Shown: positions 10,377 through 49,024 of the stretch, piece after piece | How positions within the stretch are numbered: the first letter of the stretch is position 1 | Layout: every line of letters starts with the position of its first letter | Assembly (NCBI GenBank): GCA_947501605.1 | Contig: CANMWZ010000001.1 | Coordinates: forward strand, 160,001-224,000 | DNA: 64,000 nt | DNA from: Planctomycetota bacterium | GTDB taxonomy: Bacteria > Planctomycetota > UBA1135 > UBA2386 | Reading direction: 5' to 3' | Notes under the pieces: model-generated | Told to the model about the DNA's origin: nothing | The model's input: the letters and a program-made list of their open reading frames with translations, nothing else | Database searches by the model: none | Made by a program: the position numbers and the translations under genes

Positions 10377-10477
10377 CGTTGCCGCCGCGTTGGCAAGCCC
10401 CGTGCCGTCGGCGGTTGCCCCCCTTCCTCTGGGGTCCTCCCAAGCCACACGACGACGACGCGGACCCGAGGCGCGCA

Positions 10478-13111: not shown

Positions 13112-13750
13112 TCACTGCCGTGCCGGAACAATCTCGACGCGGCGGTTGCGTTCCTTCGACTTCGTGTCGCGCGGATCGAACTGACCGTAGCCGACGATGA
13201 CGATGTTGCGTTCCGACATGCCTTGCTCGATGAGGAACCGAGCGACCGCATTGGCCCGCTTGGCCGACAGCTCGCGATTGTCGAGGTAGTTCGACTTCTT
13301 GATCGGGTCGCTGTCCGTGTGACCCTCGATGTAGATCTTGCAGTCGCCGTAGTCTCGCTTCAGCACCGTGACGATCGACTTCAGCACGCGAGATGCGCTG
13401 CTCTTGAGCTTGTCGCTGCCTGAGTCAAAGGTGACCGTATCATCTACCCCAAGCGAGAGTCGGCCCTTGCGATAATCGACCGTCACGTCAGGACCGAGTT
13501 CTTCCTGCAGGCCTTTCGTGTCGTTCTCGAACCCGGCGTTCTTGGGTTCGGTGGCAGAAGGCGCCGATCGCTCGCTCGCCATCTGGCGCTCGAGGTCATC
13601 CTTCTGCGCCCGCAGGGACGCGAGGCTGCCATTGAGGTTGCGGATCTCGGCATCGCGATCGCGAAGCAGATCCTGGTAGCGGGATGTGCAGCCGCCCAAG
13701 AGGGTCAGTGCGGCCAAAGAAACGAGCATCTTGATGGAACGGAATTGCAT
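13112..13750 (-). CDS. OmpA/MotB-family peptidoglycan-binding lipoprotein with coiled coil
   Basis: Lipobox LLGGC; FDSGS, IEGHTDSDP, N.ELSAKRA.AV, NRRVEI; GGAGG RBS. Confidence 0.9.
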   Translation of the reverse strand: MQFRSIKMLVSLAALTLLGGCTSRYQDLLRDRDAEIRNLNGSLASLRAQKDDLERQMASERSAPSATEPKNAGFENDTKGLQEELGPDVTVDYRKGRLSLGVDDTVTFDSGSDKLKSSASRVLKSIVTVLKRDYGDCKIYIEGHTDSDPIKKSNYLDNRELSAKRANAVARFLIEQGMSERNIVIVGYGQFDPRDTKSKERNRRVEIVPARQ

Positions 13751-13771: not shown

Positions 13772-14746
13772 TCATCCGTTGCGTCGCCCACGACGGACGA
13801 CCAGAACTAGCGCGAGAATACTAATGAGTGCGGCCCCGCCCAGGAACGGCACGGCCATCGGCGACGATCGTTGCCATTCGGGCCAAGTGCGGAACACGAA
13901 CTCGTGGATCGGTGCCTTGTAGAACATCACCAAGAGGGCGCCGATCGCCAGGAACGGCCCGAAGGGAACGTACGAGTCCTTGGTGACAAGTCGATGCAGC
14001 AGCCCACCAATTGCGCCGGTGAAGCTGCCCAGAAAAAAGGTCCAGAGGGCCCCGTCCCAGCCCACGAAAGCGCCGATCGCGCCCATGAACTTGACGTCGC
14101 CGAACCCCATCGCTTCGCGGCCGAAGATCGGACGCGCGCCGTTTCGGATGGCAAGGCAAAGGCCGTAGCCCGCGGCCAACCCGAACACGCTCGCGAGAAT
14201 GCTGTCCAACTCGGGCGACATGGAGCCAGGAGCAATCGTGCCGGCGAAGCCAGGACACGTGAAGGCAACCAACGTGCAACCGATAGCCATGAACGGGATC
14301 GTCAACGCGTCCGGAAGGATGCGGTGATCCCAGTCGATGAATGTGCTCGCGATCAAGAACGACACGAACGCTGCATCGAACAACGTCGGCAGCAGCAGCG
14401 ACCAATCGAGAGAAACGCCGAGTTCGGTCGTCACCAGCATCGCCCCGTGCGGCGAAGCGCGAAGCAAGACAGCAAACATCACTGCGGTCAGTAGCTCTAC
14501 CAGCGGATAGCGGACCGAGATGCGTTGACGACAGCAGCGCGAGCGACCGCGGAGCATCAGCCAACCGAACACCGGGACGTTGTCGCGCCACGAGATCGAC
14601 TTCTTGCAGTGAGGGCACTTCGACCGGCCGCCGAGGGAGCGTTGACTTGGCTCCTCCTGCGGCAGTCGATAGATGACGACGTTCAAGAACGAGCCAATGC
14701 ACGCGCCGAACCCAGCGGCGGCAAGCTCGTACGCGGATACCGACAT
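13772..14746 (-). CDS. pilD: Prepilin peptidase / N-methyltransferase
   Basis: GSFLNVVIYRLP, RSKCPHC, NVPVFGW..LRGRSRCC, YPLVE, ID..H.ILPD, MGFGDVK, PFGPFL. Start at ATG 14746. Confidence 0.93.
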   Translation of the reverse strand: MSVSAYELAAAGFGACIGSFLNVVIYRLPQEEPSQRSLGGRSKCPHCKKSISWRDNVPVFGWLMLRGRSRCCRQRISVRYPLVELLTAVMFAVLLRASPHGAMLVTTELGVSLDWSLLLPTLFDAAFVSFLIASTFIDWDHRILPDALTIPFMAIGCTLVAFTCPGFAGTIAPGSMSPELDSILASVFGLAAGYGLCLAIRNGARPIFGREAMGFGDVKFMGAIGAFVGWDGALWTFFLGSFTGAIGGLLHRLVTKDSYVPFGPFLAIGALLVMFYKAPIHEFVFRTWPEWQRSSPMAVPFLGGAALISILALVLVVRRGRRNG

Positions 14747-14949
14747 CGTCGAACCGACCCACGATCGCCATCGCGGCGAACACCAGCAGAAGACCCGTCG
14801 CCGCGAACTGCGAATCGTTCTGGCACTGACCGGTGCCGAACTGCGACTGGGACGCGACAGCTTACGAACGACTCGCAACCTGTCCAGATGCAAGGAAAGG
14901 CCGCGGATGGGCAGCTAGTGCAGAGTTCTCCACAGCTGACGCTTTCGCG

Positions 14950-16842
14950 TCAGCGGTCCAGCGCGCGTACGGATAGGAGTTCTGACAGCGGCACCCCACC
15001 TCGGACTTCCGTCTGCAGGCGGAGCCGCAAGAACGAACCGGGCGGCGCAAAGATGCGCTGACTGCCGACCACGTCGCGCGGCGGTGCTGCCCGCGAAGGA
15101 TCGAGATCAGGCTGCGTTCGCAGGAGCGGATCTGCCGGAAGCAGCTGCCACTGCACCCGCAACGATGAGCTACCACCCTGCACCCGTAGCTGCGCCGCCG
15201 CGCGGTCGGCGGGCATCGCAGCGAATGGGGTGTAGCCACTCGCAACACAACGGACATCGGCAGGCAGGCCAGGCTCAAGTCGCACGCGCACCCCGACACA
15301 CCCATCGAGTTCGCCCGGTAGGAGCAGCGTCCCGCGCTCGGTTGCGAGCAGCGTCCGAACCGGGACCGAACCCGACACATCCAGCAGGCCAGCAGTGACA
15401 ATCGCAAACGGCAACGCCGTTCCTGTCGGAGCCTCCACGTGCCCCCGCACTTCGACCCCAGAGGCCGCGACCAGGGTTAGAGCCGCACTGTTGCAGATCG
15501 CGCTGAAATCGACCAGCTGCCCAGGCACCAAAGCCAGGACTGCACCGGCCGACGCAATCTCCAACGTGCCATCGAGTCGGACGCGGCCGCGCGCTCGTAA
15601 CTGAACTCGCTGGCCCGGCGCGACAACGCGAACCGTGATTCCCGAAGGCACGTCAATGGCGGCGAAGTCAAACACCGGCCGATCGACCACACGCAGCTCG
15701 CCGTCACCCCGATCGAAGGGGACGCCCACCGCCAGGGTCGTGTCCCGCTGCGGACGGAACGTACCCAGACTGCCATCCCCAGCTTCCACTCGTACGAGTG
15801 GGCGCACGCTGCGATGCCCGGTGATTTCGAAGCCAGGGGCGGCGAGGTCGGCGTCGAGCCACGGCCGCTCTTCCTCCGCGGCGGGCCACTCAGCGACGGC
15901 CACCGCATCTCCTGGCACCACGTAGCACCACTGCATCTGCATGGGCACGGAACGGCCGGCGTAGTCGAGCAAGCCCTGCGTCCCCACTAGCAGCTTGACA
16001 CACAAGAAGTCGTCCGGCTGAAGGGGCACGGCGCGATTCGACCCCGCCACCCGAACCTGATTCCCGAACTCCAACTCGACCGTTGCGCCCCAGAACTCAT
16101 CGACCGCCTGCTGCGACAAGAGACGCACCGCTCGCGGTTCGATCCGTTCGACATGCCCAACGGGAGCGCCGCGGCGCAGGAGAGTGATTTCGAAGGCCGC
16201 AGGCGTGGCGCTCGCAGGCAGGACCGGCAGCGTGAAATGAAGCTGCAGGCGCGGATCGTCGGCCGGCATCGGAACCGAACCGAGTTCGCTCGGCCGCAGC
16301 ATGAAGGGCCGGGAATCGGCGTGTACTGGCCGCAGCGGCGCCGGTAGCCCGCGCAGCGAGCTGCCGAGTCCGGCTGTGCGGAAGGTGCGACGGACACCTT
16401 CCTGCAGCAGGTGTCCAGAGATCGAGCGAATGCCATCGGCCCGTGGATACCCCTGCACGGCAAGCCGGTAGACCGCAGAAGGCTGCATCGACCCGTCGAG
16501 TAGATCTGGACTCAGAGGCGCTTCGGGCTCGAAGGTCACCCAAGAACCATCGACGTGCAACTTGCCACGGACCGGGTGCCCCTCCGCATCGACAACAGCG
16601 AAGCTGTCACGCGTGACCGTCAGTGCATCAACCGGCTCGCTGAAGTAGACGGTGATCGCATCGTTGAGCATCAGCGGCTGCGAATCGACCGCCAACAAAG
16701 GGAACACGCTCGTCGCTTCGAAGGCAGGAGGCAGGACGCGGGTCCCTCGGCCGCAAGCGCAAAACCCGAACGCCACAATCGCCAAGAACCAGCCCCGGCG
16801 GGGATCCGGGTGGGCGCTCGCGGGCTCAAGACACAACGACAT
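14950..16842 (-). CDS. Ig-like (Big_5-type) domain lipoprotein, family B (short paralog of 21156..24563)
   Basis: Lipoprotein-like signal ending FGFCAC; LND.I.V.FSEPVD..TV..DSF and F.P..P...DG..P...Y.L; FDFAAIDVPSG.TV. Start at ATG 16842. Confidence 0.65.
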   Translation of the reverse strand: MSLCLEPASAHPDPRRGWFLAIVAFGFCACGRGTRVLPPAFEATSVFPLLAVDSQPLMLNDAITVYFSEPVDALTVTRDSFAVVDAEGHPVRGKLHVDGSWVTFEPEAPLSPDLLDGSMQPSAVYRLAVQGYPRADGIRSISGHLLQEGVRRTFRTAGLGSSLRGLPAPLRPVHADSRPFMLRPSELGSVPMPADDPRLQLHFTLPVLPASATPAAFEITLLRRGAPVGHVERIEPRAVRLLSQQAVDEFWGATVELEFGNQVRVAGSNRAVPLQPDDFLCVKLLVGTQGLLDYAGRSVPMQMQWCYVVPGDAVAVAEWPAAEEERPWLDADLAAPGFEITGHRSVRPLVRVEAGDGSLGTFRPQRDTTLAVGVPFDRGDGELRVVDRPVFDFAAIDVPSGITVRVVAPGQRVQLRARGRVRLDGTLEIASAGAVLALVPGQLVDFSAICNSAALTLVAASGVEVRGHVEAPTGTALPFAIVTAGLLDVSGSVPVRTLLATERGTLLLPGELDGCVGVRVRLEPGLPADVRCVASGYTPFAAMPADRAAAQLRVQGGSSSLRVQWQLLPADPLLRTQPDLDPSRAAPPRDVVGSQRIFAPPGSFLRLRLQTEVRGGVPLSELLSVRALDR

Positions 16843-17129
16843 GCGGTGAAGATGGTAGCGGACCTGGAGGGGCGAACCTACGCAACGCACTCCTGGAACC
16901 TCCCAGAACGGTCGGGTCGCTACAAATGGCCTCCCCATTGGACCGCTCGCGCGGCAGAGCCAAGACGGCCGACAGCACGGAACGCATTCCTAGAGCATTC
17001 TGGAGAGCCCGCGGCGAGTCCGCGACGCATTCCCCCAAGGTCAGGCCAGACCTGCGCCGCTGGCGCCTTGGGCAATCGCTACTACGGAGGGTCCATGGAG
17101 ACACGAGCCTCCAGAGTCACACCTCCTCC

Positions 17130-17164
17130 AAATGGTGCGAGGCAGCCTCAACTGCCTCGCATCA
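17130..17164 (-). terminator. Probable intrinsic terminator/hairpin after the 1291-aa lipoprotein gene
   Basis: Minus strand TGATGCGAGGCAG-TTGAGG-CTGCCTCGCACCA followed by TTT, about 40 nt past the stop. Confidence 0.5.
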
Positions 17165-17187
17165 CTCACGTGCTCTGCGCCCCACCC

Positions 17188-17218
17188 CTTCAGTCAGGAC
17201 GGCACTTCAGTCAGGACG
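17188..17218. repeat. 14-bp direct duplication containing a stop codon
   Basis: cttcagtcaggacg at 17188-17201 and 17205-17218; the second copy holds the TGA of 17207..21082. Confidence 0.8.
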
Positions 17219-20200
17219 ACGCATGCGATAGACGACGCTCATGCTTCGCAGCGACGGCGAAACCGCAGGGGTCACGTCCAAGTTGTTGCTCATGACCAAC
17301 CGGAAGTTGATGTACCGCGGCAGCAGGCCAGTCAGCGGGTTGCGGATCGTAGAGAGCCGATCCTCCGTGACGTAGGGCGTGAGACCCGTGGCCAGTACGC
17401 GCGGGGTCGTGAAGGCAGCACCCGAGTTGGCCGTCGAGTAGCGGTACGCCTCACAGGCGTAGTTCGGGTTGAGCAGGTTGCCTCGTCCAGCGACCGTGTT
17501 GTCAACGCCCGGATTGTAGAGCGTGCCCGAGTTTGCGAAGTCATCCGCACCACGAATCTCGAGCACAGTCGACGTCCCAGCGGGCTGCTGAGCAAGCGGC
17601 GGGTCGAGCAGCGAGGCGAAGTCCACAATTCGCAAGTTGCCGAGTTGGTTGCTGCCGCCGAACGTAGCGTCTGGGTAGCCGTTCGGCACCACAGCGCCGA
17701 CGCGCTGGTTGGGCCGCATGGTGTCGTAGAAGCCGAACGTCACGGTCGAGACACGACGCACGAAGTCGGCAGCAGCCCAGTGCAGCATGCCGTCGCCAGC
17801 GGGGGCGCGGATGATGCCATTGGGACCGTTGCCATTCAGACCGTTCTGAACCAGGATGATCGCGCCCGAGTCCTTGATCCAACCACCCGTAGCGTTCGTA
17901 TCCGTAGCTGGATCGACGAGGATGTCGGCTCCGGTCGTCGGATCGAGACCGCCAGTTGTGTGCACGCGCAGCGAAGGCCACGGGGCTGGCTGCGGGCAGC
18001 CGGAGCCGGTCGCATTGTAGTAGCCGCCCGGAGCATTGGCCCCCAAAGGTGGGTTCGGGAAGCTGCTTGGCGGCCCCATCATTGCGACTTGGAAGCCGTT
18101 GATGCCAGCCGCGATGGTGTTGGCCGCGCCATCTGGGAACATCTTGAAGTCGACCAACATGGGCATGGCGATCGGGTCCAGATCGCGTTTGCGATCGCCG
18201 CGGAAGTCGCCTTCGTCGAGAGCAAAGATACCGCTCGTAGGAACGGGGTTTGGGAACACGCTCGGGACCCACGGCGAGTCGACGTCCGAGGTCCAGTCGT
18301 TGGATACACCAACCAGTGGCTGGGGATCGCGGGCGCCGCCAAGACCAATCACGTTGCCGTCTTGAATGGTCACGAGGCGCGGGTCGCGCCAAGTGTAGGA
18401 ACGGTCAAAACGAGGGTAGGCGATGTACTTGATCTGGCCAGGCGAGCGGAACTGGTCGTTGGGGTCGATGCGATAGACCTTGTCCTCGAACACCGAACGC
18501 ATGGAGGAGCCACGCAGGATGTTGTCCGCATAGTTGGTCGTGAGACCACTGAGGACCGAGGGGCAGTTGAGGAAACACTGCGGCGCGGGCGGAACGCCGA
18601 CCTGACGCAGCGACCACTTGAGATCGGGGCGCTTGTCGGCATGACCGAGCGACATCGAGTATCGATCGAACACGTCGAAACGCACATCGAAGTCAGCAAA
18701 TGGCGACCAGTAGAGTTGCTCGACGTCGAGCACCATGTCGCTAGCCTGACGGTTGCTCAGCCCGAAATCGTCTTCGAGGTACCGCATCTGCATGCGCGAC
18801 CCACGAGGCTGGTGTGGCTCAATGACCTGCCCGACCGGCTGGGCAAAGGCTCCACCCTCAAACGGATTCGGCACGTTTGGTGGTTGCACGGTGTCCAGCA
18901 TGCGCGGCGACCAGTAGAGCACGCCGCCGTTGTTCGGGGCGAAGTTCGTAACGGTTGCTGGGCACTCACCGCGATTCGAACGGTTGATGCCGGCGAGGTT
19001 GCCAGAATCGGCCGTGCGGTTGAACCTCACGGCCTCGGCAGCGACTAGGCGGCCGTTCAGCAAACGATACTGACCGAACAGGTCGATGGAGCCGGAGGCC
19101 GTGCCATCCTCGTCGGCACTCTCGAACGGGTAGACGCGCCAGAGGACTAGGTTGTCCTGGCGGTCCGGATCGACGGTCATCTGGGCCGACCAGTTATTGA
19201 CAACGTTGCTCGGATCGTCATTGAAGATCTGGACTGAGTTGCCAGACAGATCCGTCAGTCCCTCGCTGCCGAGCAGCAGGTGGAACCAGTAGATGTCATT
19301 GGTCGAGGCGTTTCGGTGAAACAACCCCATCGGCGGCTTCAACTGAAGCACCGTTCCGTCGCCAGCCTGATCCGACCAACGAACTGGAACAATGCTCGAC
19401 GCAACCACTTTTGGGTCCGTCAGCTGTTGGAAAAACGAGGCACCCGGCATGGTCGCCGAGGTCAGCACAAAGTTGCGGGTCGCGTCGATGCGATCGAAGT
19501 CCATCGGCTCCGAGAACTCGAGCGCCACGGACGCATTGGGATCGACGCGCTGCCCCGGCGGCACCGGAATGCCATTGATGGTGGTCGGTGGGGCCGGGTC
19601 AATCTTCAAGAACTGGTAGCGCTGTGCCGCGTCGCTCACAACATCGGCACCGGCGCTGAATCGAAGGTTCTCGTAATAGACGCGGCGAACTGCGCAGTCG
19701 GAGCCGAGCGGATCGAGCGCGTTCGCTTGGAAGGAAACCGGGCGACCAAGGGAGTCGGTGCCGCGGATGGCATCGACACGCACGCGCATGGTCGGGGCCT
19801 GTGCACCCTGCGAGCCATCGACCGCGAGGCCAAGGCCAGGAAACGCTGGGTCGCCCCTCACTGTACCGACATCGAGGTTCTGAATGATCTCGGCCCGGAT
19901 ACGGACTGTCTCCGTGGTGAGATCTGGCAACTGAACCGTCACGGTTTGCAGCAGCACGTCGCCCGCTCGCAGCGGCCGAGTCGTGGGCACACTGGACGGA
20001 CCCAAGACGAAACCTGTGTTACGGTCGATCGATCCACCGACAAACGGATAGCGCGCACGGATGGGCACTAGATTGCCGCGCTTGTTCAGGGTGATGGTGC
20101 CGTCAACCGCGATATCGGTGATTCCCATCGCAACCGTGCCGAGCAGTGCCGGCGGCTCAACGTCGCGCAGTACCCCCGCCGCGCCATCCAGCTGGTTACC

Positions 20201-21082
20201 GGAGCGGAAGTCACGGATGACCGAATCGCGACCGAAGCTATCGACATCATTCAGTTCCTCGACCGCGTCCTGCCGGACATAGAAAGCTGAAGACACGCTG
20301 CCGCGACTTGGCAGCGCAATGCGAATGTTGGCCGTACGGCTGTCGAGGCTCGTCGGCAAGCCGGACGCCAAGAAGCCGCCCCGCGCTTCGCCACCCAGGA
20401 TCGTCGGGTCAAGGATGATCGTGTTGCCGCGCGTGATGAGCCGGTACGGAACCGAACGGAAGGCCTCAGCAGGAGATACCAACTGTGGGTCACCGGCAAA
20501 CTCGAGCAGTTGTACCGACGACGGGTTGACGTCGAAGAAGCTCGATGCGAGGCCGAGGCTGGAGGAGAAGCGCAGGACGAATGCAGCATCGCGCGGCACC
20601 ACCGGGATCGGCTGCTGTGCCGTGTTCTGGTTGCGGAAGGATGGCGGTAGGACCGACAGCCCTGCCTGTGCGGCGATCAACGCCGTATCAAAACGCTCCG
20701 CCTCGGCCCCACGGTTGTCCCAGAGGATGAGGAGCTCCTCGTGCCCTGTCGTGACGTCGAAGCTCAAGAACTGATAGTTCGCCGACACCACGACCTCGCC
20801 CGCTGGATCGTAGAGCGACTGGCTCTCGATGTTGGAGCGTACGACCACATTGGTCTGCACCAAAACGCGTCGCCGATTCAACTGGTCGCGACGGTCGCCC
20901 CGGGCATCGTCGATGCGCTGGTATGCGTAGACGTCGACCAAGCGGCCGTAGGTGACGTCCAGCAACTCCGGTCGGCTGGAGTCGATGGCATTGCCACCAA
21001 CTGTGTTGCTCGAGCCGTCGCAGGCGACGGGCAGCAGCAGGAACAGCGGTGCAGCCAGGAGGAATGCGTGCTTCATGTTCAT
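17207..21082 (-). CDS. Large lipoprotein (1291 aa), family A, with Ig-like segments
   Basis: Lipobox LLPVAC; Ig-like VDPNASVALEFSEPMD...GLTDLSGN; collinear paralog of 24665..28585. Confidence 0.8.
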   Translation of the reverse strand: MNMKHAFLLAAPLFLLLPVACDGSSNTVGGNAIDSSRPELLDVTYGRLVDVYAYQRIDDARGDRRDQLNRRRVLVQTNVVVRSNIESQSLYDPAGEVVVSANYQFLSFDVTTGHEELLILWDNRGAEAERFDTALIAAQAGLSVLPPSFRNQNTAQQPIPVVPRDAAFVLRFSSSLGLASSFFDVNPSSVQLLEFAGDPQLVSPAEAFRSVPYRLITRGNTIILDPTILGGEARGGFLASGLPTSLDSRTANIRIALPSRGSVSSAFYVRQDAVEELNDVDSFGRDSVIRDFRSGNQLDGAAGVLRDVEPPALLGTVAMGITDIAVDGTITLNKRGNLVPIRARYPFVGGSIDRNTGFVLGPSSVPTTRPLRAGDVLLQTVTVQLPDLTTETVRIRAEIIQNLDVGTVRGDPAFPGLGLAVDGSQGAQAPTMRVRVDAIRGTDSLGRPVSFQANALDPLGSDCAVRRVYYENLRFSAGADVVSDAAQRYQFLKIDPAPPTTINGIPVPPGQRVDPNASVALEFSEPMDFDRIDATRNFVLTSATMPGASFFQQLTDPKVVASSIVPVRWSDQAGDGTVLQLKPPMGLFHRNASTNDIYWFHLLLGSEGLTDLSGNSVQIFNDDPSNVVNNWSAQMTVDPDRQDNLVLWRVYPFESADEDGTASGSIDLFGQYRLLNGRLVAAEAVRFNRTADSGNLAGINRSNRGECPATVTNFAPNNGGVLYWSPRMLDTVQPPNVPNPFEGGAFAQPVGQVIEPHQPRGSRMQMRYLEDDFGLSNRQASDMVLDVEQLYWSPFADFDVRFDVFDRYSMSLGHADKRPDLKWSLRQVGVPPAPQCFLNCPSVLSGLTTNYADNILRGSSMRSVFEDKVYRIDPNDQFRSPGQIKYIAYPRFDRSYTWRDPRLVTIQDGNVIGLGGARDPQPLVGVSNDWTSDVDSPWVPSVFPNPVPTSGIFALDEGDFRGDRKRDLDPIAMPMLVDFKMFPDGAANTIAAGINGFQVAMMGPPSSFPNPPLGANAPGGYYNATGSGCPQPAPWPSLRVHTTGGLDPTTGADILVDPATDTNATGGWIKDSGAIILVQNGLNGNGPNGIIRAPAGDGMLHWAAADFVRRVSTVTFGFYDTMRPNQRVGAVVPNGYPDATFGGSNQLGNLRIVDFASLLDPPLAQQPAGTSTVLEIRGADDFANSGTLYNPGVDNTVAGRGNLLNPNYACEAYRYSTANSGAAFTTPRVLATGLTPYVTEDRLSTIRNPLTGLLPRYINFRLVMSNNLDVTPAVSPSLRSMSVVYRMRRPD

Positions 21083-21155
21083 GACCGTGTCGAGTTTCGG
21101 GGCTCGCCGCTATCAGTGGTTTTCTGTGGCGGCGAGCGGAGTCCAGTGCACAACC

Positions 21156-24100
21156 TCAGAAGCGGAACGGCAGGCGGAGGAACTGCAGTTCCGGACGCGG
21201 GGAATTCGGGCCGAATGGCCGCGGGTTTACATCCGTTAGCTCCGCCTTGTAGGCGGAGTTGAACTGGACGTCGTACTGCACAAAGGCCGCACCGAGTTGG
21301 CGGATCTGTTGCTGGACCTGAGTGTCGGTGAGGTTGTAGGCGAAGGCATCACCTGCCGGGAACCGCACCGCCCCCACAACCGTGGGGTCCGGATTTTGGT
21401 GGAAGGCGAATCCGATTCGGACGCTCGAGAGCGGAACGATTGCACCACCGGTGCCGACATAGGTGCCGCCGAGTCCCTCTGCACCGTCGGTGCGAACCTT
21501 GAAGAACTTGGAGCGGACCTGAAGCGAGGTCGCGGTTCCGTCCAGCAACCCGTCGACGCTGCAGAGCAGCACTCGATCGGTGTGCGTGAGGATGCGGAAG
21601 CTGCTTCGAACCGAACCAGCGTTGTTGCGCAGTTCGGCCTCGTAGCCGACGTAGCGATCCAGCTCATTGCCAAGCTGGGAGGTGGTCAATTCGATGCGAT
21701 AAGCGGGTTGCCCACGGAACGTGGCCCCAGCAGTGGCCGAGAGGATTGGCACCCCGGAAGAACCAAACAGCGCCGGGTATGACACCACCGCGGACGCACC
21801 CTGCACACTGTACCGTGCATAGCCGTTCTGGAGCGGCTTGCTGACATCATCAGTGATTGCCGCAAACTCGTAGCGCGGCCCGGTCAGGTCTCCTAGCGGG
21901 TCGGTGACACCGCGCGGGAGTCCGTCTGGAGCAATCACCGAACGGCGCCTCGCGGCACCCATATCGAGCCACTTCGAACGCACGCGGGTTACCGAGTTGA
22001 AGGGCACGGGCAGAAGGAGTGGCGCAGGGCGGATGTCGCCTTCGTTCGACAGGATGTTAGTCGCGTTACCAGCGTCATCGACGGGTGTGCCGAGGGCATT
22101 GGGGAAGCCGCGCCACGCCAGCAACTGCTGCTTTTGAGTCCCGGACGTGATCACGCCAGCGCGTCGCACGACGATGTTGTCGTCCAAGACGGTGTTGGTG
22201 CCATCGCTGTTCGGGGCCGACGGATCACCGGGAGGGGCCATCAACTGAACGACGCCCATGCCACCAAAGCCGCCGAGCGGTCGAATGTCGTACTGGGACC
22301 CTTGGAGCACTGTCCCCTGGCCCGAGAGCGGATACTTCGACTGGACGTCCGGGGAAAGGAACTGACCAGTGCGGCAGATGCCGCCATCCGCCGAGATCGC
22401 GAAAGTGTATTCGTTCTCGGGCGCGGCATAACGGAAGTTGGCACCGGAGCCGCGCGCATTGAATTCAATGCGCGTGGCCGACATCAGGATGACCATGCCA
22501 CCCGATCCGGCACCACCACCTGCGCCCTGATTGCACGAACCGGCCTGTTCACCACCACCACCGTGACCGCCATCGGCCTCGATGCGCCCGCGTGGGCCAA
22601 TGATGATCGGACCAAGTGCCTTGACGATCAGGATGCCACCGCCACCACCGCCACCGCCGCCCTTGTTGTCGTTGACGAAGCTCGTGGCGTTGATCGCACA
22701 GTCCGGCGCCGGAGCTAGGTCACCGCCACCGCCGCCGCCCGCGCCACCAACAGGAGCGGCTAGTTCGCCACGGATTCGAATCTGACGCTGACGGTTGATA
22801 CCGACACCCCAGAAGTCGTTGTCGGTGCGCGCGTCGGTGAAGACGCGCGGGCCCGCCGCACCGCCAGCCAGCGAGCGGGATCCTGCACCAGCTGCACCAG
22901 TGCAACCGGCGCCACCAAGACCTTCCTGTTGCTGGAAGAGGGAGCCCTGGCCCCGCAGTTCCTTGTACCAAGGATCGCCCTGGGTAGCGAGTGAGCCGCC
23001 GCCACCACCAGAGCCGATGTTGCACGCCGAGTTGCAAGACATCAGGCCAGCACCACCGCCACCCAGCGGACGCTGGCCGGCCCCAAACCCAGCTTCGCCC
23101 GTAGGCGAGCGCTGCGTCGAACTCGGGCTGCCGCGACCACCGTTACCGCCACCGCAAACACCGACACCACCGGCCGTGGGGAAGTTGGCAGAGTTCAAGG
23201 TGTTGACGCGATCGCCATCACCGCCGCGGACAGACAGCAGGCCGTTGACTTCGAAGGAATCACGCACCAGCCAGACCATCGGCCGGGTGCCTACACCTCT
23301 GACGATTACGTTCTCTGGAATGCGAACGCTTCGGAAGTTGAACTGACCGCCCGAGACATTGAATGGCGGGCCGTTGCTCGGCGACACCTGCGTGAAGTTG
23401 GTGTCCAAGATCACGCTCGCAGTCGCCGGCTCGAACTGGAGCTCCGTCGAGCCACCTTCGAAGTTGAACCCGGCGCGAACGAACCCCGACCCGACCTCGG
23501 CCTGCGGCTCGAGGAAGGCCGCATCGAAGTCAATCTGGCTTGAGGTCGCAAAGGCCTCGACCAGGACGTCAAACTGGGGGTCGTAGGACACCTGAGTGCG
23601 GAACGTGGCGAAGATGCGCTGGAAGGCAGCGTTGGCAACGTTGGACTCACCCGAGATGTCTTCCACCGTGCTCTCGACGATGACGCGGATCGTGGCGTTG
23701 TTCGGCAACACACCGACGGGCCGCAGCACGAGGGTCGACCCACTAAGACCGTTGACCTCGAGGTCCACGTCAGCCGGGACCCATGTGCTCACCGGGTTTC
23801 CGGAGCCGAAGTCGTCATACTCAAGGAACACGCGACCGCGATTGACACTCGCGCGGATGCGCGGGTCGGTATCGAGCGAGGTCGGAACATTGCCACTGTT
23901 GGGGTTGAGCGCCTGGTCGAAGCTCACCCGAATCTCGACTGGCGGGGCGCCGAACTTGTTGAGGGACACCAACCCGCCCTCCGGCGCTGGTGTTACCTGG
24001 AAGCCCGTCCTCCGCGGACCGCCAGCCTGAACGTTTCGGAACAACTGCGTCGGCGTAGTACCGTCGGCCGTCGAGAAGCGGAACGTCTGAGGATTGCTGA

Positions 24101-24563
24101 GGCCTTTGCCCGTGGTCGACAACAGCACAGAATCGTTGCGGCGGTCGCCACCGATCAGACGCACGAGGTAGGTACGACCAGGGCGGAAGCCGCCGTCGTC
24201 ATAGTTGTCGTTGGTCGGCAAGGTCGGCACGAACAGGAGTCGGCGTCCGATGTCATTGTCACCCGGACGCTTGCTCAGTTCGAAGCGGCCAGTCGGCTGC
24301 TCCGCAACTGGGTTGCCGTTCAAGTCCAACACCGAGAAACTGACGGTGTTCAGACTCGCACTGCGGAGGTCCACCGGTGTCGAAAAATCGAACCGGATCG
24401 GATCGTTGAGGAAGAGTCGACCTCCATTGAGCGGTTCCGTCGACAGCACATCAAACGTGCCGGAGAAAACGCTGCCGGTGTCGCTCGAGCCACCAGAGCA
24501 AGCCGCTGCTACCGCAGCAAAAGCGAGGAGGAACGAAGTCCGCACGTTGGCAAATGGGTTCAT
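21156..24563 (-). CDS. Large lipoprotein (1135 aa), family B, with Ig-like domains and a glycine-rich region
   Basis: Lipobox AVAAAC; LNDPIRFDFSTPVD; second Ig-like unit (VSFDQALNP...VEDISG); long GGGGG-rich segment; C-terminal FVQYDVQF...PELQFLRLPFRF. Confidence 0.8.
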   Translation of the reverse strand: MNPFANVRTSFLLAFAAVAAACSGGSSDTGSVFSGTFDVLSTEPLNGGRLFLNDPIRFDFSTPVDLRSASLNTVSFSVLDLNGNPVAEQPTGRFELSKRPGDNDIGRRLLFVPTLPTNDNYDDGGFRPGRTYLVRLIGGDRRNDSVLLSTTGKGLSNPQTFRFSTADGTTPTQLFRNVQAGGPRRTGFQVTPAPEGGLVSLNKFGAPPVEIRVSFDQALNPNSGNVPTSLDTDPRIRASVNRGRVFLEYDDFGSGNPVSTWVPADVDLEVNGLSGSTLVLRPVGVLPNNATIRVIVESTVEDISGESNVANAAFQRIFATFRTQVSYDPQFDVLVEAFATSSQIDFDAAFLEPQAEVGSGFVRAGFNFEGGSTELQFEPATASVILDTNFTQVSPSNGPPFNVSGGQFNFRSVRIPENVIVRGVGTRPMVWLVRDSFEVNGLLSVRGGDGDRVNTLNSANFPTAGGVGVCGGGNGGRGSPSSTQRSPTGEAGFGAGQRPLGGGGAGLMSCNSACNIGSGGGGGSLATQGDPWYKELRGQGSLFQQQEGLGGAGCTGAAGAGSRSLAGGAAGPRVFTDARTDNDFWGVGINRQRQIRIRGELAAPVGGAGGGGGGDLAPAPDCAINATSFVNDNKGGGGGGGGGILIVKALGPIIIGPRGRIEADGGHGGGGEQAGSCNQGAGGGAGSGGMVILMSATRIEFNARGSGANFRYAAPENEYTFAISADGGICRTGQFLSPDVQSKYPLSGQGTVLQGSQYDIRPLGGFGGMGVVQLMAPPGDPSAPNSDGTNTVLDDNIVVRRAGVITSGTQKQQLLAWRGFPNALGTPVDDAGNATNILSNEGDIRPAPLLLPVPFNSVTRVRSKWLDMGAARRRSVIAPDGLPRGVTDPLGDLTGPRYEFAAITDDVSKPLQNGYARYSVQGASAVVSYPALFGSSGVPILSATAGATFRGQPAYRIELTTSQLGNELDRYVGYEAELRNNAGSVRSSFRILTHTDRVLLCSVDGLLDGTATSLQVRSKFFKVRTDGAEGLGGTYVGTGGAIVPLSSVRIGFAFHQNPDPTVVGAVRFPAGDAFAYNLTDTQVQQQIRQLGAAFVQYDVQFNSAYKAELTDVNPRPFGPNSPRPELQFLRLPFRF

Positions 24564-24664
24564 GGCACAGGTTCTGGCCGGCGAGAGGGCACCGGCACGC
24601 TTTCAAGACAATGCAGAAGACTACTTTGAGTCGCGGGAGGAACTCGGGGTCTGATCAGCGAGCT

Positions 24665-27600
24665 CTATTGGACGCGCTGGAACCGATAGGAAAGGGCGAA
24701 GGTGTCGATCGCGGGAGCCACCGGTGGCGACGCGTCGATGTTGTTGCTCATCAGGTAGCGCCAGTTGATGTAGCGCACGTCGCTTGGAGTGAATCCCTCG
24801 TTGGGACCGTTAAACCGGCTTAGGTAGCCGGCATCCAAGAGCTGGTTCGGATCGAGCACGTAGGACGTCACCGTCCGGTTGTAGAAGTACGTCCACCAGT
24901 TCCGCGCCACGCCATTGTTTTGGCGGTCGTCAAACTTGCGGATGTGAGCGTCACAGGCCTTGAACGGGTCCAGCGCAAAGTTGGCCGCCGTCGTCTGGAG
25001 CTGAGCGGTGTAAGCCGGCGGGTAGACCGTTTGCCCCGTGCCTTGCGCCCATTCGCGCCAGTACCACGGGTTCGCATCAACCTGGCTGGCACCGCGGAAC
25101 TGCGCAATGATTGAGGTGCCGCCCGGCAACTGAGTGGTAGGCGGATCAAACTCGTACAGAAACTGCGCGCGCACACCTGCCGGCACCGCGATCGAGCCGT
25201 TCTGTGGGTTCGTGAAGTACGGGCCGAGGCGCGAATCCGCGAAGCCGTTCGGAACGCGGTGCGGGTTGTAAAGATCGATGAAGCCGTTCGTGACCACGCT
25301 GGCACGCTTCAGGAAGTCGATCATGACCCAGTAGAAGGTGTTGTCACCTGGAATGGTCGTCCCGCCCGTCCCAAGAGGCGGAGGCGGCGCATACCCACCC
25401 TGACCAGTCGGCGAAGCGGTGGGCTCGCGGCAGATCGGATTCAGGTTCGGGAAGGGCGGACGACCCGCCGTGTACATGCGGAAGTTGGGAGTGCTACTCG
25501 ACGTGAGAGCGATCGAGGTCTGCCAACCGGTGAGGCCGAACGCAACGTAGCCATTGCCCGCAGGCAACTGAGACGAATCGCATTCGACCAAGAAGTCGGC
25601 GAGCAGTGGCAACGCGATGTTGCCAACCAACCCTTCGGTTACGCGGTCCTGGGTTGTGTTGACGCGAATCAGATAGTTGTTCCCGCTGTGCCAGAATCCG
25701 TTGAGGAAGGCAATCGGGCCGGTCACACCGTTGTCCTGCACCGCGCGGCGCGCGACACCGTGATTCCACGGGGACAGGATCCACGGCAGGAAGCTGACCG
25801 CAGTGTTGTTCACGTCAGCGCCGATGCCGCAGTTGGCACCCTGCTCGACGAGAGTCTCATCGCGATAGACGAAGTAGGGTCGACGCATTGCCGGCAGCGG
25901 CAAGAAGCGGTTCCGCTGGTTTGGCTCGAGGACCGTCTGTTGCGCATCGATGCGCAGGTTTGACGGGCTGTTGACAAAGGCGCTGTGCGGCAAAGGGCGA
26001 GTCTCGACCGAGTTGACACTCGAGTTGGCCCGCAGGTTACGGACGTAATTGTCGTCGAATGTCGTCAACAGACCCGAGTCGGGGAAGGTCGGCAGCGCGC
26101 CGAAGTTGCCGACGCAGGGCTCCGGGCGGCGCTCGCTGTGACCGAGTCGCAGCGTGACCTTGTCGAACTCGTCGAACTCGATCGGAGCCCCCGTGAAAGG
26201 CGCCCAGTACATGCGCTCGATGTCGAGATTGAAGTCGAAGGGATCGGTGCGCGACAGGCTCAGGTCGATCTCGCGCCATACGGTCTGCAAACGACATCCG
26301 TAGGGGTTGAAGGGGTTCTGCAGACCCAGACCCAGCGGAGCAGTAGAAGTGTTTGCAGCAATCTGGTTCTCGCCCGCAGCCTGTTCCGGACACCAACGCA
26401 AAACCGAGGATTGCGGATCGACTGGAGCTTGATTGAGGTTGTCCGCCACCCGGCGAAGCCGCGTGGTGGGACGCCCTTCGAGGCGGCCACCTGTACGAGA
26501 GAACGCGCCGAAGACGTCTGCTAGCGGCAGAGCTCGCGCGTTCGGTGTTGCGCCGTTGCCTTGAACCTCTTCGGGAAGGTAGTAGGACGGGTTTGGATCC
26601 TCGTCCGCGTTGTTCATCGGGCGGACGACGTAAACCGGCAGATTGTCTTCGAACTGCGCACGGCCCGCGACCGAGCGTGTGTCGAGCGTGAAGGGGATGA
26701 CCAGACCGCTCGCACGGTTTGGATCGTTGGTCTGAAGATCAATCGGATTGCCAGCAAGGTCGCGAATGCCATCGACACCACTGACCAAGTGCAGGAAGTA
26801 AGGACGAGGACCGTCCTGTCGCATCGCTGCGTCTAGGTAGAAACCCTGGAGAGGTTGGAGACGCAGCGTCGTCTGCGAACCGTCCTCGTCGAGCACGCGC
26901 GATCCAATGAGATGCGGAGTGCGGAACTTCGCCAAGTTGAACGACGAGGGCGCCATACCAACTCCGCTAGGGGCACCCGTTGCATCAGCAACTCGCCACG
27001 GCCGAGTCGCAATGAACTCGTCGATCGCGACCTGATCCACGAGGTTTCGCGTCGCGAAGAAGAAAGTGTCCGCCCACTTGACCGTGGTGCGATCGACGGG
27101 CTTGGTGAAGCGGATGACGGCGCCGGCGAAAGGCGAGATGTTCTCGTTCGGCTGGCTCGGTGTGCCATCGAACTGCGCCAAGGGCGTGGGTGTGAACAGG
27201 CCGAAATAGCGCGGATCATCGCCCTGGACCAGCACGGTGCCTGTCGCAGGATCGATGCGTCCGCCCTGATACTCGGTGACCAACAGGGCACGCGGCGCGT
27301 TTGCAGCCAGCCACGCATCAATCTGAGCGGGATCCGACGGGTAGTCGGGGCGATTGCTCGGATCGATGGTCTCAAGTCCCGGAACCAACCGGACCAGCAC
27401 ATCGACGTGCTGAACGCCGGGCTGCCCCGCGTCGTCGGTCGGCTCTACAACGACCTCACTCGATCCGAACGGCGCATTGCTGTTATCCACGAGGAAACGG
27501 AAGACATCACCGCGATCAATCTCCTGAGAGATGCCGCCCTTGAAGACCCGCACTCGCATCGTGAGGCTGTTCACTTCATCGACGCGCTCCAGATACATCG

Positions 27601-28585
27601 GCATCTGCCCGACGAGGCGAGGCGGCTCATTGTCGAGCACGAAGCCTCGCGCAAGATCCGGACTACTATCGGAGTCGTTGCCGGAGCGGAAGTCGCGGAC
27701 GATCGCGCTACGACCGCCGTTGTTGAGCCCCGTCCAGCTGTCGGAGCGCAGACGCGGAATCGCCAACGGACCATCGAGGGCCAAGGCAATACGGATGTTG
27801 GCGCCGAAGCTGTCTGGTGACGCCGGCAGGCCGGAAGCATTGTTGCTGGTCTGGTATTGTCGACCCTCGCTACCGAGAAGGACAGGGTCTAGGATCAGGC
27901 TGCTGCCATCGACGATGACGCGAACGTCCAAAGGCACGAAGTTGCCCGCCACGGTGGGGTCGCCCGCAATCTGCAGCAACTGCACCGCATCGGTGTTGCG
28001 TAGTGCAGTCACTTCTCCGTTGGCATCGCGGACGACGAAAAAGTCGTCGCTCACACCGAGCGCGCGGGTGAAGTTGAGCCGGATTGCCGCGTTACGCGGA
28101 ACAATCGAAAACGGTTGCCCGGCGCCACCCTGCCCAAACAGCAGCGGGGTGACCAGACTAACTTCGTTGTCGAGATCGTCGAAGAGCTGCTGGAACGCCG
28201 CAGAACCGATCTCGCGCGGAATGAAGATTCGCGGCTGAAGCGTGTCGGCGTCGGCACTCAGGAAGTCGTAGCGGATCTCGGAATCCGCCTTGCCCTCGGT
28301 GGAAGTCCCTGGGACACGCTCATCGCGGATATCGCGACCGACCAGGACATCTTTGCGCACGAGGTCGCGAGTCTGCCCTTCGCTGGTCGTGCGGATGCCG
28401 TACACGTCCACGATTCGACCGAACTCAACGCTACTGATGGATGTGGTCGCAACTGCGGGCCCTGCTCCCGACGGTGCAACGGAGCCCCCACTGCCACAAG
28501 AGGCAGTGAACACCCCGAACAGGGCGAAACCGGAAGCAACGAGGGCGACACGGGCCGTAGACCGGCCTGACGTGGTGCTTGCCAT
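24665..28585 (-). CDS. Large lipoprotein (about 1306 aa), family A
   Basis: Start at ATG 28585 (MASTTSGRS), lipobox VFTASC; FGRIVDVYG, VRDFRSGN, GIRDLAGN; paralog of 17207..21082. Confidence 0.8.
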   Translation of the reverse strand: MASTTSGRSTARVALVASGFALFGVFTASCGSGGSVAPSGAGPAVATTSISSVEFGRIVDVYGIRTTSEGQTRDLVRKDVLVGRDIRDERVPGTSTEGKADSEIRYDFLSADADTLQPRIFIPREIGSAAFQQLFDDLDNEVSLVTPLLFGQGGAGQPFSIVPRNAAIRLNFTRALGVSDDFFVVRDANGEVTALRNTDAVQLLQIAGDPTVAGNFVPLDVRVIVDGSSLILDPVLLGSEGRQYQTSNNASGLPASPDSFGANIRIALALDGPLAIPRLRSDSWTGLNNGGRSAIVRDFRSGNDSDSSPDLARGFVLDNEPPRLVGQMPMYLERVDEVNSLTMRVRVFKGGISQEIDRGDVFRFLVDNSNAPFGSSEVVVEPTDDAGQPGVQHVDVLVRLVPGLETIDPSNRPDYPSDPAQIDAWLAANAPRALLVTEYQGGRIDPATGTVLVQGDDPRYFGLFTPTPLAQFDGTPSQPNENISPFAGAVIRFTKPVDRTTVKWADTFFFATRNLVDQVAIDEFIATRPWRVADATGAPSGVGMAPSSFNLAKFRTPHLIGSRVLDEDGSQTTLRLQPLQGFYLDAAMRQDGPRPYFLHLVSGVDGIRDLAGNPIDLQTNDPNRASGLVIPFTLDTRSVAGRAQFEDNLPVYVVRPMNNADEDPNPSYYLPEEVQGNGATPNARALPLADVFGAFSRTGGRLEGRPTTRLRRVADNLNQAPVDPQSSVLRWCPEQAAGENQIAANTSTAPLGLGLQNPFNPYGCRLQTVWREIDLSLSRTDPFDFNLDIERMYWAPFTGAPIEFDEFDKVTLRLGHSERRPEPCVGNFGALPTFPDSGLLTTFDDNYVRNLRANSSVNSVETRPLPHSAFVNSPSNLRIDAQQTVLEPNQRNRFLPLPAMRRPYFVYRDETLVEQGANCGIGADVNNTAVSFLPWILSPWNHGVARRAVQDNGVTGPIAFLNGFWHSGNNYLIRVNTTQDRVTEGLVGNIALPLLADFLVECDSSQLPAGNGYVAFGLTGWQTSIALTSSSTPNFRMYTAGRPPFPNLNPICREPTASPTGQGGYAPPPPLGTGGTTIPGDNTFYWVMIDFLKRASVVTNGFIDLYNPHRVPNGFADSRLGPYFTNPQNGSIAVPAGVRAQFLYEFDPPTTQLPGGTSIIAQFRGASQVDANPWYWREWAQGTGQTVYPPAYTAQLQTTAANFALDPFKACDAHIRKFDDRQNNGVARNWWTYFYNRTVTSYVLDPNQLLDAGYLSRFNGPNEGFTPSDVRYINWRYLMSNNIDASPPVAPAIDTFALSYRFQRVQ

Positions 28586-28919
28586 GGTGTGCACTGAGTT
28601 TGGATGCGCGGGCGCGCCGCGCTTGCTGCGAGCTTCGCCATTCACCGCTCGCGAGCCACCGCAGACCAAAGTACGGAGGCAGTGGATCACATGCAGCATG
28701 GGAAGCTACTGGAGGTTACAACAGGAAAACCGATTGAGGACCGCGACCAAACGCGAGCGTCTCGGCGAGGGGCACTCCGACGGAATCAACTATCATGCCG
28801 TAGTCGGCGTCCGACACAAGCCTCCCCAACACCCTGTATCTTCGGCACTTGGCGCATCGTTCCGAAAGTGCAGGCGAGCGCTCCAGCCCGCAGTCGGGCA
28901 TGGGCTGGTGCGGATTCGC

Positions 28920-33564: not shown

Positions 33565-34704
33565 TCAGGACTGGAAAGTGCGGATCTGCCCGCCCTGGGT
33601 GATGCCCCGCATCTGCATCTTGAGTTCGTCGGGGCTATCCGAGGCCACGAGAGCCTCCTCAAGGCTGATGTTGCCGGCCTGGAACAGCCGGATCAGCGAC
33701 TGGTTGAACGTCATCGTGCCGTAGTAGCTGCCTTCGGCAAGCGCCTTTGGCAAGCTGCGGGTGCTGCCCTGCTCCAGCAGTTCGCGGACAGTCGGCGTGT
33801 TGATGAGCAACTCCACCGCTGGGACCATCGCCGTGCCCTCCTTGTTCTTCACCAGGCGAAGCGAAACGACGCCGGCCAAGTTCAAGGCCAGCTGCAGGCG
33901 CACGAGCTCATGTTGGTGCGGCGGGAAGAACGTGATGATGCGTTCCACGGTCTGGACCGCGTTGACCGTATGCAGCGTCGAGAAGACCAAGTGCCCCGTC
34001 TCCGCCGCCGAGATCGCTGCTTGAACGGTCTCCGCGTCACGCATCTCGCCGATCAAGATCACGTCGGGCGACTGTCGCACCGCTTGACGGAGAGCCGACG
34101 AGAAGTCACCGACGTCGACGCCCACTTCGCGTTGGTTCACAATCGAGCGCTTGTCTTCGAAGCGAAACTCGATCGGGTCCTCGATCGTGATGATGTGCTT
34201 GTTCATGTTCCGGTTGACGTACTCGAGCATCGCTGCGAGCGTCGTCGACTTGCCGGAACCAGCGGTGCCCGTAGCGAGCACCAGCCCTCGCTTCATCGAG
34301 GCAAGTCGCTTCAGCGACTCCACCGGGAGGTTGAGTTCCTTGAATGAAGGGATCTCCTCCTTGATGGCGCGAAAGACGAACCCGGTTTCGCCCGACTGGT
34401 TGAACACGTTGCAGCGGAACCGGCCGACGCCGGGCAGTCCAACCGCCAAGTCACACGCACCCGTCGCGCGGTACTCGTCCTTGTGACGATCCGTCAGCAC
34501 CTCCTCGAGGTAGCCACGCATGATGGCGCGAGTGAGCGGTTGATCGCCGACGAATCGGATCACACCCGATTGACGAATCGCAGGGCAACCTCCGGTCTTG
34601 AGGACCAGGTCGGAAGCACCCTCCTTCACCATCATGCGCAAGAAATCGCGCAGCTTGGGTTCGTTGTCCGTGGGTTTCTGCGTGATGACGTTGTCCGGTT
34701 CCAT
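33565..34704 (-). CDS. pilT: PilT/PilU-family type IV pilus retraction ATPase
   Basis: ASDL, RFRCNVF, GTAGSGKSTT, TIEDPIE, QREVG, RQSPDVILIGEMRD, ETGHLVFSTLH. Start at ATG 34704. Confidence 0.88.
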   Translation of the reverse strand: MEPDNVITQKPTDNEPKLRDFLRMMVKEGASDLVLKTGGCPAIRQSGVIRFVGDQPLTRAIMRGYLEEVLTDRHKDEYRATGACDLAVGLPGVGRFRCNVFNQSGETGFVFRAIKEEIPSFKELNLPVESLKRLASMKRGLVLATGTAGSGKSTTLAAMLEYVNRNMNKHIITIEDPIEFRFEDKRSIVNQREVGVDVGDFSSALRQAVRQSPDVILIGEMRDAETVQAAISAAETGHLVFSTLHTVNAVQTVERIITFFPPHQHELVRLQLALNLAGVVSLRLVKNKEGTAMVPAVELLINTPTVRELLEQGSTRSLPKALAEGSYYGTMTFNQSLIRLFQAGNISLEEALVASDSPDELKMQMRGITQGGQIRTFQS

Positions 34705-34818
34705 TCTTCCCAGCCCTCCGAATCCCGGATCTATCGGCAGGAAGGCACCGGCAATCCTCGCGCGCGACGGATGCGCCGATGCCATGGCCGAAGATGGCGC
34801 GGGGTCCAGGCCCCCGAG

Positions 34819-41181: not shown

Positions 41182-41373
41182 CTTCGATCCTTTTCCCGCA
41201 GCCGGGAAGTCGGGTTGATTCGCCATTGCGGTCGGCGCCGCAGCGGCACCGACCAGGGGGTCCGTCTCCATCGTCGCAGCGCCTACCAGCCCTTTAGGGG
41301 ATTTGCGCTACAGCGTCGTTCGCTTACGTCGACGCGCGACTGCCGTGGCAGTCGCTCCTTCCTGCTCACGCGC

Positions 41374-42798: not shown

Positions 42799-42810
42799 GG
42801 GTCACCTCCG

Positions 42811-43461: not shown

Positions 43462-43480
43462 TGTCTTGGTTCCTCCCGGA

Positions 43481-44503: not shown

Positions 44504-44659
44504 TGCGTCCTGCGCTCCTTTGCGCGCTCCGTTGCGGGGTGGACCGATCCATGGCACCTATCGGCCAAGAGCCCGTCGCGTATTGAGCCGCGTTCGATTC
44601 GCCGAGCGGCGGCCCTCCCCGGAACCGCGGGATCGACGCCCTCCTGCACCACCCGGAAC

Positions 44660-48917: not shown

Positions 48918-49024
48918 CGTACGAAGCGCGTTCGCGGACGGTTTCGTCACGAACCAGGGTGCGCTTGAGACGCACAGGCTCAGCGTTGGGCATGCCCCGT
49001 CCCGGGAAACTCCGCGCCCGAAAC

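Follow-up and report, generated by a model that had tools for sequence, protein, structure and literature searches.

What does a bacterium build with four large lipoproteins whose genes follow one another in the order A-B-A-B, close to those of a type IV pilus, and how did this order come about? The question is raised by a stretch of 64,000 nucleotides (the window, whose positions are used below) from a Planctomycetota bacterium of the UBA1135/UBA2386 lineage: assembly GCA_947501605.1, contig CANMWZ010000001.1, positions 160,001 to 224,000. The cassette formed by these genes is real, ancient, undescribed and order-wide in this lineage. As for its role, we lean, tentatively, towards a constitutive, co-assembled outer-membrane surface structure for adhesion or glycan binding, working alongside the pilus. 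The four genes are:

24665..28585, minus strand: A1 lipoprotein, 1306 residues, predicted lipidation at Cys30
21156..24563, minus strand: B1 lipoprotein, 1135 residues, predicted lipidation at Cys22
17207..21082, minus strand: A2 lipoprotein, paralog of A1, 1291 residues, predicted lipidation at Cys21
14950..16842, minus strand: B2 lipoprotein, 630 residues, predicted lipidation at Cys30

A first reading, made from the letters alone (the sequence-only reading), had described these as four co-oriented genes of two paralogous families, each with a lipoprotein-type signal, and this description holds. All four large open reading frames (ORFs) are present on the minus strand, and each fully spelled motif that was searched turned up, D.EPP.L.G being seen in the alignment of A1 with A2 only. 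A1 and A2 are collinear paralogs that align from end to end (26% identity, 1433 columns, E 2e-82). The kinship of B1 and B2 is borne out by profile comparison (probability 99.8, E 1e-27, 373 columns); single-sequence BLASTP gives a weak match (40 bits, E 4e-7), the best of 100 shuffles reaching 25.8 bits. Their homology is restricted to the N-terminal ~430 residues, and none of the polyglycine runs of B1 is found in B2. The four proteins are predicted to carry lipid anchors: a pattern scan found in each a hydrophobic signal ending in a lipobox cysteine, and this residue is invariant or nearly so among homologs in all three family alignments, the conserved cysteine in FGFCAC of B2 being the second one. 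A and B1 are poor in lysine and rich in asparagine, threonine and glycine, as in extracellular proteins. All that A and B have in common by sequence is an Ig-like stretch, where the A profile matches the B region at E 5-7e-5, and a weak terminal strand. The similar C-terminal strand once ascribed to all four survives only as a weak likeness between A and B1 (E 5e-4), whose models both finish in a split jelly-roll; compared as a profile, the C-terminal part of B2 matched neither A nor B1 significantly.

Do these proteins belong to a family already described? Big_5-type (PF13205) Ig-like domains had been proposed for the array, and they are indeed found in B1 and B2 (27.8 and 29.6 bits against a curated cut-off of 23.6) as well as in two further B paralogs, B3 and B4, which also exceed the cut-off. 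A1 and A2 have neither a Big_5 match nor any other Pfam match, although PF13205 is present in some A homologs. The statement that neither core falls in a characterised family proved right: Pfam finds only Big_5, NCBIfam has nothing for the four array proteins nor for B3 and B4, PHROGs matched 0 of 9 proteins, and a search of PDB sequences returned one match to A, at E 0.47, and none to B. The Atlas search gave only matches at 0.76 to small viral hypothetical proteins, which is under the useful range. In the four array proteins there is no match to the Pfam families of FimA/Mfa type V pilins, nor to the class III (N-methyl) signal of type IV pilins (PF07963), the pilin that carries this signal sitting elsewhere in the same pilus cluster. 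The A profile matches 960 clusters at 50% identity; all the homolog names seen are 'hypothetical' or 'Ig-like domain', and no description of either family was found in a literature search whose coverage stopped short of subscription papers and bioRxiv supplements. Judged by these searches, A and B are undescribed protein families without a solved relative. Their individual parts are known folds, the combination is new, and it is a variant of stalk-and-head surface lipoproteins; the domains are of the kinds met in surface proteins.

The cassette has a marked distribution. The A profile matched 38 of 301 sampled Planctomycetota genomes, with full-length A in 18 of 18 genomes of the same order (that of the window included) and partial A in 20 of the 283 others; the B2 profile matched 94. 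Strict co-occurrence of A and B, to which the sequence-only reading had looked, is seen from one side: 37 of the 38 A-positive genomes are also B-positive, a tight linkage, but B stands without A in 57 of 94 (A threshold E<=1e-10), even if three of those genomes that were examined (L099-L101) have weak A-like genes beside B. Among 41 related genomes, A1 was matched in 38, B1 in 41 and B2 in 41, in some only via paralogs. The named relatives are Planctomycetota metagenome-assembled genomes, one labelled CL500-15, and we take them to belong to the early-branching group of OM190/UBA1135 type. When the compact A homolog was used as a query, no cultured-strain name appeared among the best 120 matches listed.

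The array occupies a definite slot, next to components of the type IV pilus:

13112..13750, minus strand: OmpA/MotB-like peptidoglycan-binding lipoprotein, a conserved neighbour
13772..14893, minus strand: PilD prepilin peptidase, start probably near 14746, invariable neighbour downstream
33565..34785, minus strand: PilT/PilU-family ATPase, upstream of the array
39277..44557, minus strand: pilM, an ORF in the pilN position, a pilO-like gene and the gene of the PilQ secretin, in the same super-cluster

In 40 fetched loci the slot has pyrB on one side (preceded by obg, pilT, a PDZ protein gene, coaX and an mnmE-like gene) and pilD, the OmpA/MotB-like lipoprotein gene and efg2 on the other. Where genomes are contiguous the cluster runs on as pilT-pilB-pilC-TPR-pilA and, ~10 kb further, between one and three additional B paralogs; in the genome from which the window comes, the pilT to pilA half is on another contig (C20), and pilM to pilQ lie in the window, upstream of the array. 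Synteny with pilD, pilT, pilB, pilC and pilA is kept across the order and in distant families, and the array thus shows the conserved position within a pilus cluster that is looked for in accessories of type IVa pili. Distant families (f68, f26, f41) use the same slot, and in three loci of families f30 and f93 only a two-Ig B2 lies between coaX and pilD, the A copies being elsewhere. B2 is the last gene before pilD wherever a locus includes pilD, bar one A-only locus. With 10-14 kb held at one locus across the order and beyond, the cassette is core rather than accessory. The additional paralogs B3 and B4 (862 and 891 residues when mature; L085:5218-10808, that is C20 9217-14807, minus strand) are B-family lipoproteins placed after pilA, with a sigma54-type site of their own, and they form a separate clade in the B tree. 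Neither the pilus neighbourhood, nor B3 and B4, nor the sigma54-type site before the array figured in the sequence-only reading.

How, then, did the A-B-A-B order arise? Layouts were typed by BLAST in 25 loci having both pyrB and pilD: ABAB was met 12 times, ABB 6, AABB 2, and BAB, BB, ABBAB, AB and AAB once each. The AB and AAB loci each hide a B1, so that the corrected counts are 7 for ABB and 3 for AABB. All 12 ABAB loci fall in the window's own family, where they make up 12 of the 14 fully flanked loci; one further ABAB arose independently in family f10 (L064). In the A tree (40 rows, quick search, midpoint root) A1 and A2 form one clade, with a Shimodaira-Hasegawa-like likelihood-ratio support (SH-aLRT) of 99, restricted to families f1, f3 and f7, and there were separate A duplications in f2, f9, f10 and f93. 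B2 is a clade of its own that spans the order. A tree forcing together B1 and B2 of f1, f3 and f7 was rejected by the approximately unbiased (AU) test, its log-likelihood being 147 lower (p-AU 1.5e-166, LG+G4 model, long branches present); in view of the limits of that model the B tree is supported by, and is not independent of, the constant place of B2 before pilD. Since the clade of A1 and A2 is confined to three families and that of B2 is order-wide, the array probably began as A-B1-B2 and received A2 afterwards; further A or B copies were gained separately in individual lineages. The sequence-only reading had instead derived the alternation from the duplication of an obligate A+B pair. This is highly improbable: the prevalence of ABAB in the window's family, its recurrence in f10 and the fact that A is nearly always accompanied by B would fit, but B2 is older than the split between A1 and A2, the AU test contradicts the pair tree, ABAB is family-restricted, and ABB, AABB, BAB, BB and ABBAB layouts exist besides.

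The models predict a common design, two Ig-like stalk domains followed by a split jelly-roll platform that holds a swappable head. In B1 (residues of the mature protein, from its model) the parts are:

14-149: first Ig domain (Ig1), of Big_5 type
150-303: second Ig domain (Ig2)
304-330 and 835-1114: split jelly-roll
331-833: inserted beta-helix with ordered polyglycine runs
907-996: small beta-barrel insert

In A1, which also has a predicted N-terminal domain before the first Ig-like domain and a middle domain between the two, they are:

~153-319: Ig-like domain 1, by profile similarity and not from a model
~460-641: Ig-like domain 2, likewise by profile similarity
~654-704 and 1094-1304: split jelly-roll, from the model of homolog L026
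~707-1093: jelly-roll head resembling a carbohydrate-binding module (CBM), from the same model

The B1 model is confident (predicted local distance difference test, pLDDT, 93.8; predicted TM-score 0.85). Its Ig1 matches the AmyB N-domain, CopC and SbsC (Z 10-11, root mean square deviation (rmsd) 2.1-2.8, 95-98 residues aligned). The inserted helix resembles those of the adhesins EtpA and HMW1 and of ice-binding proteins (Z 6.5-7.3), and phage tail proteins provide a likeness both for the split jelly-roll, together with CBM16 (Z 6-7.5), and for the barrel, through small barrels of their own (Z 6-6.9). Foldseek brought up mainly tandem Ig domains and, among viral models, collagen-like and glycine-rich proteins. 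There are about nine GG-rich runs in B1, with 27.5% glycine in mature residues 424-750, modelled at high confidence as neither helix nor strand; because they are ordered and yet neither, we infer that they may form a polyglycine-II bundle. The A fold comes from the C-terminal half of the compact homolog L026 alone (30% identical to A1 there, pLDDT 88.1). Its head (L026 model residues 51-351) resembles the N-terminal CBM-type domain of a carbohydrate esterase (Z 7.9, rmsd 3.2, 154 aligned) and Cwp84 (Z 6.0). This head too is inserted in a split jelly-roll, and the outer jelly-rolls of A and B1 match several of the same chains (9euf, 9nwi, 9h4p, 8jov, 2zew, 2e33); A and B thus probably carry different heads on a common scaffold. 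In B2 the Ig pair is retained, with eroded, glycine-free beta-helix strands as head, and the protein is reduced to 233-254 residues, an Ig pair, in families f4, f6, f9 and f68. In the last of these (L050, L051, L056, L061), B1 is enlarged to ~1600 mature residues beside a B2 of ~235. Neither gp38, nor ALK, nor type V pilins were among the fold matches listed, 50 at most per search, and no C-terminal beta-propeller of the kind found in PilY1-type tip adhesins was seen in the B1 model or that of the A C-terminal half, which end in jelly-rolls. A kinship of the jelly-rolls with capsid proteins was also considered and set aside, as the Foldseek TM-scores of at most 0.2 reflect generic jelly-roll similarity. 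Elsewhere in the genome, C17 61504-63024 (minus strand) encodes a ~480-residue protein without lipobox, in which an A-type head and C-terminal domain stand on another N-terminal domain, with no stalk, and C2 21587-24859 is an ORF of ~1090 residues in which the B profile weakly matches several Ig-like stretches.

Is the array expressed, and as a unit? Two features bear on this:

28785..28800, minus strand: sigma54-type -24/-12 element, GG-N10-G, upstream of the first array gene
16957..28759: metatranscriptome contig of 11.8 kb from run X1, bridging A1-B1-A2 and ending in the flanking intergenic regions

The sigma54-type pattern, fixed after the sites had been seen, precedes the first array gene in 20 of 28 loci, where shuffling would give 0.11, and internal genes in 0 of 92. 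It was found before one of three orphan copies and, at a plausible distance from approximate starts, before five of nine B3-type genes. There are 180 matches genome-wide, 51 under a stricter form, and, judging by sequence, the ORFs that follow these 51 include dnaK, a small heat-shock-like gene and genes of secreted proteins. These putative targets accord with a report that sigma54 controls genes for chaperones and secretion in Planctomycetota (PMC12316311, accessible text). The only other match in the window (10392-10407, minus strand) precedes the ORF 8655-10376, a secreted-looking protein of 573 residues without a Pfam match, and it is here, after efg2, that synteny with relatives breaks; rpoN, the sigma54 gene itself (47541-48950), lies directly upstream of pilM. 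A scan for sigma70 promoters and terminators stayed at chance level (1 against 2.2 and 13 against 13.9). Parts of the stretch are represented in ten RNA runs from 4 studies, with half or more of it in 3, and the array is present in lake and sediment RNA libraries. The cover in run X2 likewise ends at 28731, and pilM-pilQ are on a separate RNA contig; being contigs, these data give neither a ranking of genes nor proof of a single transcript. Cover of B2 is patchy and shallow in X1 and X2, and X3 and X5 are patchy everywhere. Constraint can be read from ten relatives: identity is 57% for A1, 58% for B1, 53% for A2 and 40% for B2, to be set beside markers (some of them partial) such as PyrB (77), EF-G2 (55), PilD (54), the OmpA-like protein (54) and the MnmE-like protein (47). 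A1, B1 and A2 are thus conserved on a par with PilD and EF-G2.

The adhesive or glycan-binding structure towards which we lean would be put together as follows. A sigma54 promoter would drive A1, B1 and A2 jointly; the proteins would be exported by Sec, lipidated at their cysteine and transferred to the outer membrane, where the Ig pair would raise the platform off the membrane and serve as an assembly module. A would show its CBM-like head and B1 its beta-helix/polyglycine-II head, and these heads would bind polysaccharide, particles or cells. B2, reducible to an Ig pair and kept beside pilD, would be a low-copy anchor or adaptor. The genomes analysed here presumably belong with the relatives cultured from this part of the phylum. 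Those relatives encode type IV pili and are mostly particle-attached, as the accessible text of 10.1101/817700 has it. The surface of uncultured, early-branching Planctomycetota is little known, and the cassette gives concrete protein targets, together with a modular platform whose head can be swapped.

To be sure, several observations weigh against this role. Surface exposure, ligand and assembly are all putative. Every fold match outside Ig1 has Z<8, possibly reflecting a common arrangement, and such matches indicate a type of fold, not a function; the fold evidence for A is limited to its C-terminal half, and the top Foldseek matches of the Ig pair are the tandem Ig spacer domains of envelope enzymes, the L,D-transpeptidases (LdtMt2). 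Heads are as conserved as stalks (58-61% against 60-63%), unlike the variable tips of classical adhesins; this suggests that they meet constant partners or ligands and are not diversifying, and an unvarying internal partner would account for it just as well. The proximity to pilus genes may merely have been inherited as gene order, with obg, coaX, mnmE, pyrB, rne and efg2 interspersed as well; no pilus marker lies within 20 kb in 13 of 19 distant B-like loci (20 were fetched, a 2-kb stretch without match being left uncounted), and orphan A and B-B copies occur (L038-L040). Finally, the sigma54-type pattern is found before pilA in 0 of 7 cases and is absent before the window's pilM.

Some of these points lend themselves to other explanations. 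That A and B are dedicated parts or cargo of the type IV pilus, either a collar or platform around PilQ with B2 as adaptor, or lipoproteins exported in the manner of a type II secretion system (T2SS), is rather unlikely. In its favour, the array lies between pilMNOPQ/pilT and pilD/pilT/pilB/pilC/pilA in contiguous genomes, with B3 and B4 after pilA and a short B2 staying by pilD where A has moved off (L094-L096 against L046, L049 and L052), and the split jelly-roll with its insert resembles the platform of a podophage nozzle (7z47, Z 6.2, rmsd 2.7, 100 aligned). The prepilin N-methyl motif is absent, however, neither model has a beta-propeller, the sigma54-type site is not common to pilA or pilM, housekeeping genes have the same synteny, and about two thirds of the sampled Planctomycetota have no match, even though type IV pili are reported there (accessible text of 10.1101/817700). 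It is less probable still that A, B1 and B2 polymerise via their split jelly-roll platforms into a lipid-anchored, nozzle-like ring or lattice around the pilus secretin. If true, a third of Planctomycetota would be marked by an outer-membrane organelle not known before, which could underlie particle attachment or cell-contact behaviour; should these proteins assemble with the pilus in any way, they would add an accessory structure of a new kind to type IV pili.

Two further possibilities dispense with the pilus. We consider it improbable that A and B build a two-dimensional lattice over the outer membrane, a lipid-anchored counterpart of an S-layer: the match of Ig1 to SbsC (Z 10.1) and Sap (Z 6.0) would suit this idea, yet the same fold matches CopC and AmyB equally well. 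Foldseek likens the jelly-roll pairs to capsid proteins, with low TM-scores; the proteins have a suitable size and composition, and the array is preceded by a promoter-like site of its own. Against this, the number and order of the copies differ freely among loci, an S-layer would generally be less conserved in sequence, and the term 'S-layer' is absent from the main text of the Saltatorellota paper. A scaffold or spacer of the envelope, facing the periplasm and working with the OmpA/MotB-like peptidoglycan-binding lipoprotein, is more doubtful again. Aspartate at position +2 is an inner-membrane retention signal in Escherichia coli, and it is found in 11 of 25 A2 homologs; the transpeptidase spacers among the Foldseek matches, the bacterial alpha-2-macroglobulin included in the VIA structural listing and the conservation of the OmpA-like neighbour go in the same direction. 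The beta-helix, polyglycine and CBM-like heads are nevertheless of the sort that usually belongs to binding proteins facing outwards, the searches brought up no catalytic domain, and the OmpA-like gene is unmatched in distant loci that keep the array (L050, L051, L061).

Comparison with known systems shows what is familiar and what is new. The Big_5 proteins (SbsA-type Ig-like), among them SbsC, CopC and AmyB through its N-domain, share a domain with the cassette, B1 to B4 passing the cut-off; this domain, however, covers only ~100-300 residues, with platform and heads outside it, and A1 and A2 fail the cut-off. Glycine-rich polyproline-II (PPII) bundles are known in the receptor-binding tip gp38 of phage S16 and in ALK/LTK (PMC13243192, accessible text). 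B1 has GG-rich runs that are ordered in its model and may take up a PPII geometry, but they sit in a beta-helix on a lipid-anchored Ig stalk. With podophage nozzle and baseplate proteins (SU10 7z47, Pa223 9nwi, GP4 8jov, phi812 9euf) the cassette shares a jelly-roll made of N- and C-terminal parts around an inserted domain. The SU10 nozzle is a hexamer with its platform split around a propeller (PMC9509320, accessible text). The likeness is limited to Z 5-8, the insert is a jelly-roll in A and a beta-helix in B1 and no propeller is present; moreover, the cassette proteins are chromosomal lipoproteins, without a PHROG match and without a phage gene among the annotated neighbours.

Type V pili of Bacteroidota are made of FimA/Mfa1 with the anchor FimB/Mfa2, and they recall the cassette by their tandem paralogous lipoprotein genes, by a C-terminal strand that is conserved and by one member that diverges and tends to be truncated. 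They differ in that the cassette proteins have no Pfam match to type V pilins, are much larger and, in the B1 model, use the last strand to complete their own jelly-roll. The Ig-repeat surface lipoprotein adhesins, such as Leptospira Lig and Acinetobacter InvL (a T2SS substrate), have in common with the cassette a lipid anchor, an Ig stalk and a distal head; in place of their long repeats the cassette has two Ig domains, and it is a multi-gene set kept across an order.

The neighbours of the array also deserve mention. At 28920-30320, PyrB is fused C-terminally to a PyrI_C-like metal-binding domain, and the fusion is kept across the order. The MnmE-like GTPase (30375-31409) is short, 344 residues, and diverges faster than its neighbours. 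The unannotated product of 32138-33418 has a weak PDZ match and is kept between pilT and coaX even in distant families. The PilO-like protein (41374-42798) bears a long C-terminal extension with a weak T2SSB match, and is possibly a PilO-PilP-like fusion.

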